Below, one piece after another: positions 50,631 through 60,210 of a stretch of 64,000 bases of DNA. The stretch's first letter is position 1. Every line of letters starts with the position of its first letter. This DNA is from a virus (lineage: Duplodnaviria; Caudoviricetes): the IMG/VR virus record IMGVR_UViG_3300047160_009226, positions 136,690-200,689 of that record, one strand, 5' to 3'. The translations under genes were made by a program, and so were the position numbers. The notes below the pieces were generated by a model, which was given only the letters and a program-made list of their open reading frames with translations, made no database searches and was not told the origin of the DNA.

Positions 50631-51512
50631 TTAACTATATCCTGCGTCAGGTACCCCATTTAAGAATATATTAACATACTCTACATAGGCATTTGCTTGA
50701 TTTGCTACCGCTGCATTACTAGAAGAAACTTCATAAGTCACCGGAGAATTGCGATCACCATACGTAATGTTTTCAGAGGTCACAACCATCTCAGCATAGT
50801 TCACATACCCAAACCCAATCTTGATCAATGTATAGTAAGATAAGGCAACCGCTGTTGTTAACTGAAGAGTAAATTCCGAGTCAAGTGCCCGATAGTAGGC
50901 CGGTAGCATGTTCGGATTATTAAACCAATATGGTTGTAAGTTGACATTATGGCTCAGACTCCAGGACAATACAAGATCATTTCCAGTCGTCCAGGATGCT
51001 ACCGGCGTGCTAACACCTACCGTAGTTATGGGAACCGATGAGTTCACCGCGTCAATCGTCGACTTACCCTCTAGAGTGAACGTAAGTCCAGCATTCTGAT
51101 TTCCGTTCACCGAGAACTGGTTCCAAGGTAGGCTGTTCCCGTTCGGATTGTCAAGGAAATAGTTGGCGTTTCCCTGGGAAATGAGCAACTGGCGGAAGTT
51201 CACCCCCCGAGCCGATCCCTTTAAAAGCTCCAAAAGCCCCAAAGTCGCGGCAGTAATCTCACCCCCCACCGACCAGGTAACCTCCCTCGTTCCAGCCGTG
51301 TGAATCGCCTTCTGCTTGGGACCGACTCCAGGAGTAAGTGCGTACTTCGTGTAATTCGGACTTCCGGTGTCATTAAATGATGCGTCAGTAGAGAGTAATG
51401 TCTCCATTCCACACATAGGATGAATCATCTGCACCAGTCGCCGAAAACCGGCTACTTGTCTTGGATATATGACCGGAGCAACAACTACATTAGGATCAAA
51501 CGTTTGAGGCAT
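50631..51512 (-). CDS. Tail tube-like protein, paralogue 1 (two-subdomain type)
   Basis: Beta-rich, about 300 aa; GTREVTWSVGG, FSVNG..LTFTLEG, VLSWSLSHNVNLQP...LPA; aligns with 52844 and 56312 genes. Confidence 0.65.
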   Translation of the reverse strand: MPQTFDPNVVVAPVIYPRQVAGFRRLVQMIHPMCGMETLLSTDASFNDTGSPNYTKYALTPGVGPKQKAIHTAGTREVTWSVGGEITAATLGLLELLKGSARGVNFRQLLISQGNANYFLDNPNGNSLPWNQFSVNGNQNAGLTFTLEGKSTIDAVNSSVPITTVGVSTPVASWTTGNDLVLSWSLSHNVNLQPYWFNNPNMLPAYYRALDSEFTLQLTTAVALSYYTLIKIGFGYVNYAEMVVTSENITYGDRNSPVTYEVSSSNAAVANQANAYVEYVNIFLNGVPDAGYS

Positions 51513-52843: not shown

Positions 52844-53731
52844 CTAATTAGAACGAGGAAGTGATCCTTGTGCGAAATAGGATGCTTCCCATTTTATCGT
52901 TTCGTTCGGACCGGCTATTCCAGTAAATTGTCTCTGTGGATCTCGTATCAGATTATCAATAGTGATGGTATCAAGAGGTCCCATACCAGGAGCGACACCA
53001 ATCTGAAGCTGTAAAGTTCCTATATCTTTTGGCCTGTTATTGCGTGCTGCAAGCCAGGCAATCGTAAAAGTGATATCAAGATCGCCGGCTGAAATCAATG
53101 CAGGGTTAGGTGGCTGTGTGTACCCCGCTAGAAAATGTTGGTATTGCCATTGATTATTAAAAGTCAAAGACCAATTCATCGGAATCGCATTAGATGTAAT
53201 TACTGTAAAATTAGGAATAGTCTGCCATCCAGCTATGGGCCGATAATTATCACTCATCGGAAATAGCGGAGGTACCGGTTGTCTCTGTAATACTTGTGGT
53301 GAAGCCACTTCCTTCCATACCCACGCTGTCATGTTAATGTTTAAACTGACTAGTGATTCTGGAGAACCCGCTATCGTCAACTCATCGACATACCCTGTTC
53401 CACTGTAACCTTCCCCAACCGCAGGATAAATCTCAAATGAAACCTCTGGAACCATATCCATAAGATTCAAGGTTCTCCATTCGTAAGTCAAAGCCTTAAC
53501 CAAGGACATTGTAGCAGGACAGATAAATGTGGCAAAACTTACAGGTAAAGACCTCCTATTCTTAACTGCTAATGGACCTACTGCTAATGCAGGGTTATTG
53601 TGATAAGCGCCCCCCGCTTTAATCACATTTTCACTTTCTGAAGCACTCCCTGGAAGAAGAGGAATAGGTATGCCATTCACAATGGCATAGCCGGAATACC
53701 CTAACCCATCGAAAATATCGGTAGCTGGCAT
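52844..53731 (-). CDS. Tail tube-like protein, paralogue 2
   Basis: GYSGYAIVNG, YSGTGYVDELTIAGSPESLVSLNINM, NWSLTFNN...PNPALISAGDLDITF. Confidence 0.75.
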   Translation of the reverse strand: MPATDIFDGLGYSGYAIVNGIPIPLLPGSASESENVIKAGGAYHNNPALAVGPLAVKNRRSLPVSFATFICPATMSLVKALTYEWRTLNLMDMVPEVSFEIYPAVGEGYSGTGYVDELTIAGSPESLVSLNINMTAWVWKEVASPQVLQRQPVPPLFPMSDNYRPIAGWQTIPNFTVITSNAIPMNWSLTFNNQWQYQHFLAGYTQPPNPALISAGDLDITFTIAWLAARNNRPKDIGTLQLQIGVAPGMGPLDTITIDNLIRDPQRQFTGIAGPNETIKWEASYFAQGSLPRSN

Positions 53732-56311: not shown

Positions 56312-58682
56312 TCACGTATAAGACATGGCCATGGGAGGTGCGGTGCCATCACCGAGTCCTCCGAAACCAAAAGTACGCGGCACGACTTCGTTCTGCCCTG
56401 CAATAGCGAACTCTTCACTCGTCAGAAGGACATGTGCGAATGTGATCGTCGGATTCGTACCGCCACCAGTATTACCCGCAAGGAACAGAGTGACATTCGT
56501 CGTTGACGCGGTGAATGGTGCAACAGGTGGCCACTGATATGCATACGGGTCCGGAATCACACCATCCCGGAATAGACGCATCGTGCCATCGACACTCATA
56601 ACACCCTGAAAGACGGCTGCAGGGTTTGGATCCCCTGTGCAATTCGATACCGTAATCCCATTGGCAATAAATGAACGTGTGCTTGATTCGTACACGTCAT
56701 AAACATCAACGGGATAGTACCAGGGAGTAACTCTTTCAACCTTATCAAAGTACCAGTCCTGTGCCTGATACATTCTCAAAAGTTGGAGTTCAGAGCCAGA
56801 GCACTTCAAAGTTTCTGCCCGCTGAATAATGCGAGGCAAAGTCGTCTCAGCCAAAACGTTCGAATGTCCATTCCTAACGTTCTTAATTCGAGCCGTCGTC
56901 GCATCTTCTTCTCGATCCCTGGCTTTATACACATACTTACCAGGGAACAGAGCCCGAATCAGAACCTGAGCATAGGGAACATACAGGGATTTATCAATCT
57001 CCTGTGTCCGGTTCGCAAAGTAAGATTCCAAGGCGTCCTGCTTGGAATCCAATGCAAAACCAACTTTCTCTAGGAACCACTTCCTGCTGCGAATCCCAAC
57101 CACCCGAACGTCATACCTTCTTGCAACATACTTTCGTCCGTTGATCTCAGACTTAAAAGACGTCGGAGTAATGGTGGAAATGACTCCCAGCAAATGCAAA
57201 GCTCGACGAACATCCCTGGCCAAAAAACGATACTTGGTCGAAAAATGAATAACACCTCCATTTCTCACACCACCATCCGTAGTGAATAAGCCTCGTAGCA
57301 GTGCTCCCAATTGCTTCTCTCCCAAAGACCACGTCTGTTCAGGGAGTCCCTTCTCTCTCCACCGGCCCTTCGGTTGATAAGAAGGAATCTCAGTGAATTT
57401 TGATCGATCCGCCTTTCGTGTACCCAAGTAAAATTGAGTCTGTTCGCAATCCATCTCCCCATTTTCCAACTCAAACGGAGGACGAATCGACTCAGAATAT
57501 TCAAGACCCTCTTCCTGGAAGAAATCCTCCAGTAGAGATACCAAGCTCTTCTCAGACTCAGTCACTTGCCATACCAATCTCCCGTTATCATCCTGAGATC
57601 CATCTCCATAAAGATGACCGATGGCATACCACCTCTTGATCGACCCACCACGATCCTCAGGGATCAACCCTCCATGACCACGACGACACAACAACCAATC
57701 TCCCTCCCCCAACTCATCGGCCCGTTTCCAGCTCAGCGTCCCGTCACCACGCATCACTCGCATCTTATGATCTGGAGTGACTCTGATATCGTTATGCAGC
57801 TCGGTACGAATCCTCAGGACGTCCCTCTTGCCCTGATAAACCAATCCCCTGTGCCTCTGAATTCCATGCTCAGAAAGCACCCGACCAGGCTCATCCAACA
57901 AGGAATCAATCCGATGATAACCTATAGGTGTCATGATTCTTGAGTCTGCGGCTAAACAACCACGCACGACTTGTGTGTTGTTGTTCATAGTCCAGTCAGC
58001 TCCCATCATAAACATGCCCGTTGGATTCGTCGGAGAGTAATTCGGCGGAGCCCCTCCCGGCCAACCACCCCCAGCAGGGAAATTAGGAGGCCACAGATTC
58101 ACCTGTGCCTGAGCCAACCAACCAGGAAACGGATTTCGGTTGATAGGAGCCGGATTCAAAGGGAGTGTCGGTACGTTCGATGTTGTCCGGACTGCCCGAT
58201 ATGTACTTGCAGAGTAAGTCTCTGATCTCTGCAAACCGATCACATTGCAATTCAACTTGATTGATGCCGCTGGATCGACCGTAAACCCAGCTGAATTCAT
58301 CCAGACCCCACCACGGGTATTCCCAGTAGGATTGGGATCAGCCTGAAAAGACTGGATCGCCAATCCATTCGGCGACACGATCATGCTCTGAGGATACACC
58401 CTCCAGTTGACTAACCAGTCCGAAATCAAATTCCAGACCGTAGGAAGACCTCCCTGAAGTTCGAAGGTCAGTGCCCCTGAGAATTGCATCTGACTATCTG
58501 CGTAGTTTGTGTGTTGAGCACCAGTCCACCACCCGGCTCCCCATACTGCTTCGGAGAGAATCGGGTTCACCTCGCGGTTCAATCCACCCGTGTTTGTCAA
58601 CAGGAGAATTGCAGGATATTGACCGCCTGGAGATGCGGTAGGTCCACCTAACTTCGCAAAACCCGAAGTACCCTATTGACAT
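56312..58682 (-). CDS. Tail tube-like protein, paralogue 3, intein-containing; true start at 58682 needs a +1 shift at codon 8
   Basis: Exteins align with the other tube paralogues (GYFGFAKL vs GYSGYAIV; ADWTMNNN...PNPAAVFQG vs NWSLTFNN...PNPALISAG); SD GGGGGG before 58682. Confidence 0.75.
56642..57958 (-). mobile_element. Intein with LAGLIDADG homing endonuclease (439 aa)
   Basis: Block A G|CLAADSRIMT, block B IRVTPDH, LAGLIDADG-like AIGHLYGDG and LRGLFTTDG, block F/G VYDV...FIANGITVSN|C. Confidence 0.95.
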
Positions 58683-58743
58683 AGGATACCCCCCTTTCTT
58701 TGAAAAAAGACACCCTGATTTCCGTGACGCCTCAATCTACCCA

Positions 58744-59229
58744 TTACTCATCCGAGAGTGGAAATAGCTTGAATTTACTTTTTTCCTTCAATCGATATGG
58801 ATAAGGAAACACATTAAATCCGCCCTTCGCCGCCACAACAATCGGAAAATATCCTATGAGTCCCGTCATACGCCCCTTAATAGCATAAAAAATTGTCGGT
58901 TCCTTATCTTCAAGAAGATTCATATCAACACCTACAATAATACCAGGACGTTTACCAGGTTCTGTCCAACTCAAAGCCTCTTTAATAAGTAATGAAGAAC
59001 TGATCTTTTCAGCGATTGCTAATCCCATGTGATCTGCTGGATCACACAAAAAGATAACAGGATGATTGATTCCTTCGTGAGCTAAACGATTGGCGAGTGC
59101 TTCACAGCGATCCCAAAGAACCTGAGTCACCCTGTATGCAATTGCCTCCAGTTCTTGATCGTCAGCATCGCCCATATCGATGCCTAAACCATCATCATTG
59201 TCATCATCGGGTCTCTGAACCAACTTCAT
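58744..59229 (-). CDS. Hypothetical protein
   Basis: ORF track 58744..59313; start refined to ATG 59229 after the upstream stop. Confidence 0.65.
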   Translation of the reverse strand: MKLVQRPDDDNDDGLGIDMGDADDQELEAIAYRVTQVLWDRCEALANRLAHEGINHPVIFLCDPADHMGLAIAEKISSSLLIKEALSWTEPGKRPGIIVGVDMNLLEDKEPTIFYAIKGRMTGLIGYFPIVVAAKGGFNVFPYPYRLKEKSKFKLFPLSDE

Positions 59230-59530: not shown

Positions 59531-60077
59531 TTTTTTCCTCTGCCTCTTTCACCAACTCCGGATCTAAAGGAGAAAGAGGGTCCTTCCAAAAGACCTTAAT
59601 ATCACGGGCAGCTGGAATTTGACCACTCGGGAATTGCTGTTTCAACCCATAGTCAAGGACAAAACTCTCAGCGACTTCCTGTTCCATCAACAAAGTAGCA
59701 AATTTGACTGCCTCAGAATCTGGCGGCATATCTTTCATTCTTTCATTAAATTCTCTTCCAAAACCGGCATAATAAATAGGACCTCCGTCGTCCTCCCTTT
59801 TTGCGTCAGGGAAGACCACACACCAAACGGTACACCCTTCAACCACATATCCGCCTTGATGCCCGATCAATCCATTAACAATTCGTGAAAGAACCTGTCC
59901 CTCCTCATCAATGTCATCTCGATTTAAAGTTTGGCCAACACTCATACGCTCATTGGCCATTTCAATAAGTTCTGCCAGAGAGAAAATTTTGATACTTTCA
60001 AAATCAATGACATCAGGATAAAAAGCTGGACCTTGTTCCAGATGATTCAGAAAATACGCATGCTCTTCGCAATCCAT
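59520..60077 (-). CDS. Hypothetical protein
   Basis: ORF track; start refined to ATG 60077 (SD AGGGG). Confidence 0.65.
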   Translation of the reverse strand: MDCEEHAYFLNHLEQGPAFYPDVIDFESIKIFSLAELIEMANERMSVGQTLNRDDIDEEGQVLSRIVNGLIGHQGGYVVEGCTVWCVVFPDAKREDDGGPIYYAGFGREFNERMKDMPPDSEAVKFATLLMEQEVAESFVLDYGLKQQFPSGQIPAARDIKVFWKDPLSPLDPELVKEAEEKNGG

Positions 60078-60210
60078 TGTCTTTCCCCTAAGCAATAAAC
60101 TTCTATTGCGATAATAGCTCAATCTCAGATCTTGAAATTTTCTCTTTCTTCTCCAACTTAAAGAGGGTCATCTCATTAAGCCACCATAAGCATGGTAACT
60201 TAATCATCGT

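Follow-up and report, generated by a model that had tools for sequence, protein, structure and literature searches.

In bacteria, UUU_Y and UUU_Ynn are especially prone to +1 frameshifting, even without a stop codon (PMC5009743). UUU replaces CUU as the +1 site in a minority of the prfB genes (PMC5009743), and it is also the site in FseA of ICEMlSym. Furthermore, a stable 12-bp hairpin placed beside the E site raised +1 shifting on 70S ribosomes in vitro, with ~60% of the effect of the Shine-Dalgarno (SD) sequence of prfB (PMC6321510). A site with these features lies near the start of the tail-tube gene of an uncultured soil phage of ~200 kb, in a stretch of 64,000 nucleotides (nt) from IMG/VR record IMGVR_UViG_3300047160_009226 (positions 136,690 to 200,689 of the record); the whole stretch was analyzed and is called the window here, and all tube-gene coordinates refer to its minus strand. 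The gene contains a surplus base: the conserved N-terminus of the tube protein starts at an SD-led ATG (58682) and continues in another frame after codon 8. The observation is confirmed, and the surplus base is very probably real DNA. We tentatively regard it, with a probability of roughly 0.45, as a recent indel specific to this phage lineage, the gene being expressed, if at all, by +1 slippage; both the slippage and its efficiency are what we infer.

The site has in common with E. coli argI and Yersinia YopN-TyeA (UUU_Y) the same tetranucleotide, the re-pairing of tRNA-Phe one base 3', and the independence of an adjacent stop codon (PMC5009743). Those sites are found within normal genes or at their ends, and their products are minor; in the tube gene, by contrast, no useful product would arise without the shift, which would take place at codon 8. 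In prfB, which encodes release factor 2 (RF2), CUU_UGA and an SD-like duplex 3 nt upstream likewise form a +1 site on NUU_U early in the open reading frame (ORF), with the duplex abutting the E-site codon, but in the tube gene the A-site codon is not a stop, autoregulatory logic is lacking and the site is not conserved, and the duplex is an intramolecular hairpin instead of an SD:anti-SD pairing. In the construct of Huang, Cho and Chang 2018, which worked on 70S ribosomes, a +1-prone site was likewise preceded by a 12-bp stem capped by a tetraloop, with the stem immediately 5' of the E-site codon (PMC6321510); that stem was synthetic, GC rich and placed on CUUUGA without RF2, whereas the candidate stem described here has three G-U pairs and also sequesters the SD sequence and the AUG. 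The G run of the herpesvirus thymidine kinase gene ("savior" indel) is another homopolymer indel that is partly corrected by slippage and whose nonshifted product is useless (PMC5009743), but in the tube gene the run is only 4 nt long and lowered expression has no known benefit. +1 shifts in tail-shaft genes also occur in the Listeria phages PSA, A118 and A500. There, however, CCC_UGA lies near the 3' end, the shift yields a second, C-terminally extended product, and the arrangement is conserved in all three phages, none of which applies here. T5 pb6 and P74-26 TTP (PF18906) share the fold of the tube protein, but the copy in the window has an intein and a frame break. To our knowledge, an upstream refolding hairpin has so far acted as a +1 stimulator in synthetic constructs only. 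If the shift in the tube gene were functional, it would be a rare case of an obligatory +1 frameshift in a bacterial virus and the first candidate from nature for a +1 stimulator in the form of an upstream hairpin, coupling initiation control and recoding in a structural gene.

The evidence for the frame break comes from the start region. From ATG 58682, the 0 frame reads MSIGYFGF, followed by 54 unrelated codons and a TAG stop at 58496-58494. The 62-aa product had no look-alike in a search of a protein collection, which is a weak test, as such ORFs are seldom called as genes. The long frame is shut upstream by TAG 58675-58673, and thus a productive shift must come after codon 3; it is open from 58672, directly past this TAG, and contains no ATG, GTG or TTG before TTG 58600. 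Skipping one base in GGG TTT T GCG (58664-58655) gives MSIGYFGF-AKLGGPTASPGG..., the postshift part of which (AKLGG...) is the +1 frame. Indeed, the family N-terminus is split across the two frames precisely at GGG_UUU_U: past the shift, the next codon is GCG (58657-58655), and without the shift the A-site codon is UGC (58658-58656). The surplus base is located within TTCGGGTTTTGCG and belongs either to the T4 run or to GGG, with an identical restored protein in both cases. The 13 nt also result when one G is added to GGT TTT GCG, and the site is therefore GGG_UUU_U and not strictly a T3-to-T4 change. The sequence-only reading that preceded this analysis had placed a +1 frameshift at codon 8 after the SD-led ATG 58682 and had stated that TTG 58600 lacks an SD sequence; the DNA bears out both statements, and the family N-terminus agrees with the first. 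The N-terminal match to a "paralogue 2" that it had put forward turned out to be weak (BLAST E value, 0.73), and true family members were decisive instead. Readthrough of TAG 58675 or reassignment of this stop codon was rejected: the peptide that it would give (ILCQ?GTSGF...) is unlike the family, whereas the ATG frame matches it.

About 25 homologues (43 to 91% identity) begin with M[SP][IL]GY.GYAKL, and in an alignment of 42 sequences (22 to 76% identity), M1, G4, Y5 and G7 are invariant or nearly so. To this we added 69 related loci drawn from metagenome and viral collections. An in-frame M..GY.G[YF] is present in 49 of them and another in-frame N-terminus in 2, and the remaining 18 are without an in-frame start and have an intron (see below); a frameshift at the tube-gene start was found in none of the 69. 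Among the relatives with DNA, the nearest (L002/L003, of soil-metagenome origin; ~74% nucleotide and 91% amino acid identity) is in frame, with ATG AGT ATT GGA TAT TAT GGC TAC GCT. The region had no blastn match among GenBank phages, and a scan of IMG/VR for the exact 13-nt and 12-nt patterns, with the window's own record masked, found nothing. P0033 and P0034 carry a LAGLIDADG intein at the same site as the window gene (..IRG|C...N|CTG..), and so the intein allele is not restricted to the window. The intein-bearing P0034 starts in frame in the ordinary way, and so the frame break is independent of the intein; the suggestion that the break is a second control layer on top of the intein is not supported as stated.

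Two further observations were made among the relatives. P0007 and P0088 (77 to 81% identity) are annotated from MLLLTNTGG, and the conserved first ~25 residues are missing from these proteins; the reason may lie at the 5' end of their genes, in the form of an intron, a frameshift or some other break. P0005, from a Logan contig of ERR12036785 (91% identical), has the in-frame N-terminus MSLGYFGYAKL, but past ...GWPGG it turns into LRRIGLRRIQQVCL, which is an out-of-frame reading of family sequence; this is a frame break distinct from that of the window gene, or else an error of the Logan assembly.

The break in the tube gene might itself be a sequencing or assembly error, the genome truly having 12 nt instead of 13 and the gene being an ordinary one. 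The source is a single metagenome-assembled record, the context is a homopolymer, and a one-base error would explain everything trivially. The read evidence came from Logan contigs at about 2-4x (151-nt Illumina source reads; k-mer depth of at least 2). In run X1, a Logan contig spans the bins 58546-58679 (depth, 1.65) and 58680-58813 (depth, 1.06) with at least 99% likeness. Ten pieces belong to this run and eight are listed; one of the unlisted pieces must account for bin 57340-57473, and the other then covers the site. The contig deduced in this way is a single one of at least 151 nt that crosses 58679/58680 and covers at least 58588-58679; its gapless span is put at 58588-58738 or more. 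Among the matches listed, no contig has an indel. The T4 run is thus present in independently assembled reads, X1 itself being much too shallow to be the origin of the 200-kb record. Coverage of the site came from X1; runs X2, X4 and X5 did not reach it, and among the sequencing runs listed none was of RNA. The same strain is present at 100% identity in several soil runs. Moreover, the longest intact ORFs of the genome have 2463, 1122 and 1016 aa, 88% of the genome is occupied by ORFs of 120 aa or longer, and in ~7 kb syntenic with L002 the break in the tube gene is the sole frame break between the two phages. Together, these data point to a very low indel error rate, as the sequence-only reading had already argued from long intact ORFs. 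As for its proposal to check the reads at 58658-58661, the independent X1 contig agrees with the record and has no indel listed. The assembly error that it had left as an option has become unlikely, the same 13 nt being carried by an independent, Illumina-derived contig that crosses the site without a gap, and we consider an error of any kind improbable.

The identity of the protein was deduced from a model of the intein-less relative P0004. The AlphaFold model (pLDDT, 85.9; pTM, 0.84) has two fused tube beta-sandwich domains, and its top Foldseek matches are all tail-tube chains: the P74-26 tail tube (8ed0) with an E value of 9e-12 and T5 pb6 chains with E values of 5e-10 to 6e-10, at a TM score of about 0.6 and a sequence identity of 8 to 16%. 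Further matches were the SH-Ab15497 major tail protein, the DT57C pb6 tube and p140-like chains. Two relatives score above the 27-bit cutoff of Pfam Phage_tube_2 (PF18906), P0020 with 37 bits and P0023 with 51.5 bits; neither P0004 nor the window protein gave a match to this profile. According to the model, the tube gene thus encodes a duplicated tail-tube fold of the P74-26 TTP/T5 pb6 type. It is the only member of its own family in the 91%-complete genome; the ORF at 52844-53731 is a distant tube-like paralogue (hhalign probability, 95%), and the ORF at 50631-51512 has no detectable relation to the tube gene. The product is probably the major rather than a minor tube protein, because the gene is the first in the tail block, its best matches are major tube proteins and it is favored by selfish elements. 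The sequence-only reading had considered that a minor tube component might be down-tuned in a programmed manner, in addition to the control by the intein; as stated, this is not supported by a sole family member that looks like the major tube protein.

The gene does not look decayed. Apart from the frame break, it contains no further stops or indels, and the differences between its eight preshift codons and those of the nearest relative are mainly synonymous. Relative-rate counts gave 7-13 unique substitutions for the window branch and 5-7 for P0004, which is not a significant difference, and the signs of a pseudogene (more disabling changes, relaxed constraint) were not found. In view of the lack of decay, the lack of excess amino acid change and the synonymous preshift differences, the break is either recent or compatible with function. 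Of the explanations offered by the sequence-only reading, a recent insertion fits best with 0 of 69 loci frameshifted, with GGC TAC GCT in frame in the nearest relative and with the unremarkable rate of amino acid change. According to the explanation we prefer, a homopolymer in codons 7 to 9 would recently have been lengthened by one base in this phage lineage (T3 to T4, or GG to GGG). Ribosomes would still initiate at ATG 58682, and full-length protein would be made only where peptidyl-tRNA-Phe slips +1 from UUU to the overlapping UUU and GCG is read next; ribosomes that do not slip would produce a useless 62-aa peptide. The slip might be aided by a 12-bp hairpin that re-forms behind the ribosome as far as the E-site codon, and also by the A-site codon UGC, which is rare. 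Such slippage would amount to compensatory frameshifting on a recent indel and not to a conserved programmed device.

The sequence around the site contains elements that could assist such a slip. UUU_U permits perfect re-pairing of tRNA-Phe, with GGG_U just upstream as a weaker alternative. The 5' arm of the predicted hairpin holds 4 of the 6 G residues of the SD sequence and the AU of the AUG, and its 3' arm consists of codons 3 to 6; it ends 3 nt before the shift codon, so that the E-site codon GGG alone stands between hairpin and UUU. With a ΔG of -16.7 kcal/mol (z score, -3.8), it was not equaled in stability by any of 200 shuffles, and the tube start region is the most stable of the 84 SD-ATG start regions in the genome (-18.0 versus -7.2 ± 3.1; next best, -13.1). 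Over a wider region of 181 nt, the fold was not significant (z score, -1.1), and the local hairpin alone stands out. TGC is the rarest sense codon in the genome (2.6 per 1,000). The sequence-only reading had noted neither the hairpin abutting the E-site codon nor the rarity of the A-site codon; both give a functional +1 shift some weight.

These elements could even be a selected cassette, i.e., an evolved programmed +1 frameshift in which UUU_U, the abutting hairpin and a slow UGC tune tube output together with the hairpin-locked start region. All three types of +1-favoring elements are present in the right register (PMC5009743, PMC6321510), the hairpin is the strong statistical outlier just described, and its three G-U pairs argue for an RNA-sense structure and against a DNA palindrome. 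Natural UUU +1 sites exist in the prfB minority and FseA, and the Listeria phages use +1 shifts in the major tail gene. On the other hand, there is no phylogenetic conservation, neither in the 69 loci nor in the intein-bearing P0034, and a hairpin at the same place was absent in the 5 relatives examined. Neither an alternative product nor a sensor logic is evident, and the 54-codon run-on in the 0 frame is wasteful, unlike known programmed sites. The hairpin may also be a translational operator independent of the frameshift; its arm ends around codon 6 anyway, and a 3-nt spacing would arise by accident in ~1 of 5 cases. TTT_T is common in frame, and a suppressor or quadruplet-decoding tRNA was not detected, ARAGORN finding only tRNA-Leu(TAA) in the 200-kb genome. 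An SD-like motif at 3-nt spacing from the shift site was not found either. A selected cassette is thus distinctly unlikely. Slightly more doubtful still is the full scheme in which an obligatory, hairpin-assisted +1 shift at codon 8 (GGG_UUU_U) makes the major tube protein, with the hairpin that locks the SD sequence and the AUG re-forming and pushing the ribosome forward. Rfam at the gathering threshold gave nothing in the window, and neither a sigma-70 promoter nor a terminator was found near the start. Transcriptional slippage and phase variation were rejected, a 4-nt run being much too short.

Several points weigh against a tube protein that is made by slippage on a recent indel. A major tube protein is needed in hundreds of copies per virion, for which a sequestered SD sequence combined with an inefficient shift looks too costly. 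UGC is read by a cognate Cys tRNA, and that it is rare in the phage is at most weak evidence of slow decoding. No 0-frame stop adjoins the site. In-frame TTT_T occurs 311 times in the phage genes, and so the host is not obviously hypersensitive to it. Finally, the read depth at the site is only about 2-3x from one run, and the allele might be polymorphic or defective. The shallow read support and the missing 0-frame stop also fit an inactivating mutation, i.e., a dead tube gene without any functional full-length protein, in a defective or transient variant or in a phage for which the gene is dispensable via tube-like paralogues. So do the restriction of the frameshift to this lineage, the lack of a conserved stimulator and the distant tube-like paralogue at 52844-53731; moreover, the P0005 Logan contigs are frame-broken elsewhere in the gene, and broken copies do occur in such data. 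However, the gene is the sole member of its family in the genome, and this family is strongly conserved at the amino acid level relative to its nucleotide identity. The 786 codons without further damage and a substitution rate that is not accelerated also speak against a dead gene, as does the 100% identity of the strain across several soil runs, a sign that the phage is viable. We consider inactivation unlikely, but it is a serious contender to the compensated indel.

The long frame has 786 codons, including the LAGLIDADG intein, and is intact. A functional protein could in principle be made in shortened form from a start within it, at TTG 58600, at TTG 58582 or by reinitiation at ATG 58489. 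The public gene call does begin at TTG 58582 (756 aa), and next to the stop of the 62-aa ORF an arrangement typical of termination-reinitiation was observed (58487-58496, minus strand): the TAG is followed by 4 nt and then by the conserved in-frame ATG 58489, which is M62 of the long frame. However, neither TTG is preceded by an SD sequence, and the octapeptide of the ATG frame fits the family too well for an untranslated sequence. In the AlphaFold model of P0004, residues 7-15 and 22-31 are strands, and starts at 58600 or 58582 would therefore remove conserved structure, along with the near-invariant M1, G4, Y5, G7 and L28. A product begun at M62 would also lack the near-invariant WGAGW motif and was judged nonfunctional. 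A downstream start is thus very improbable. If the break is only a recent indel, the public call cuts the conserved N-terminus off the tube protein. The coordinates of the features are given in Table 1.

Table 1. Features of the tube gene in the window and examples of the intron in related loci
Feature	Position	Strand	Remark
Shine-Dalgarno sequence GGGGGG	58689..58694	-	6-nt spacer to ATG; direct sequence reading
Hairpin, 12 bp, loop GUCA (predicted)	58665..58692	-	5' arm 58692-58681; 3' arm 58676-58665
ATG, true start codon of the tube gene	58680..58682	-	Opens MSIGYFGF frame; fits family N-terminus M-x-x-G-Y-x-G-[YF]
0-frame dead-end ORF	58494..58682	-	62 aa; family-like in first 8 aa only
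TAG of +1 frame	58673..58675	-	Upstream closure of long frame
GGG, codon 7	58662..58664	-	E-site codon when UUU is in P site; alternative place of surplus base
TTTT, UUU_U +1 shift site (candidate)	58658..58661	-	Codon 8 is UUU 58661-58659
N-extein, +1 frame	57959..58672	-	238 codons of open frame; 91% identical to intein-less relative P0004
TTG, first canonical in-frame start of long frame	58598..58600	-	Without SD
TTG, publicly annotated start	58580..58582	-	756-aa gene call; 6 codons past TTG 58600; without usable SD
LAGLIDADG intein	56642..57958	-	439 aa
C-extein and stop codon	56312..56641	-	109 aa
Group I intron in related loci (examples; splicing predicted)	L020:473-728, L018:1533-1797, L040:73-323, L019:2717-2955, L034:481-710, 9 more		Alignment A4

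The 18 related loci without an in-frame start (13-14 of them unique) have a separate exon 1, ATG GGN ATG GGN(T), which is preceded by a good SD sequence and lies 240-290 nt upstream of the gene body. Removing an ORF-less element of 222-270 nt restores MGMGYQG[FY].... A U closes the 5' exon and a G closes the element, which is inserted in two registers one base apart, following nt 12 or nt 13. Of the 54 pairs in an RNAalifold consensus, 28 show compensatory changes, and the P7-like motifs GACUAA and AUAGUC are conserved in the element. RF00028 matched L040 weakly (E value, 0.013). Judging from these sequence features, the element is a group I intron that interrupts the tail-tube gene at codon 4/5, and splicing is predicted. 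With an RF00028 match of only E 0.013, gene callers miss exon 1 and truncate the protein, and the overlooked intron leads to a misannotated gene in about a quarter of the distant relatives. A link between the frameshift and the intron site was considered and rejected: the intron lies 9-12 nt upstream of the T4 position, occurs only in a distant clade (~30% identity) and has left no remnant in the window, and no intron was found in the window's own clade. One contig (L030) contains two family paralogues (L030:1511-1799 and L030:3001-3492), both with the GY.GY N-terminus and only one with the intron.

A genome scan for the signature of the tube-gene start gave no other true case. A look-alike at 60207 was rejected; it is an ordinary small gene, and the next gene has its own SD-ATG. 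Compared with the syntenic L002, the minus-strand segment 59520-60207 is an insert of ~690 nt that carries this 34-aa gene (ATG 60207, with a strong SD sequence). The insert also carries a second gene, whose start is probably the SD-preceded ATG near 60077 and not TTG 60122, which was chosen by the ORF finder.

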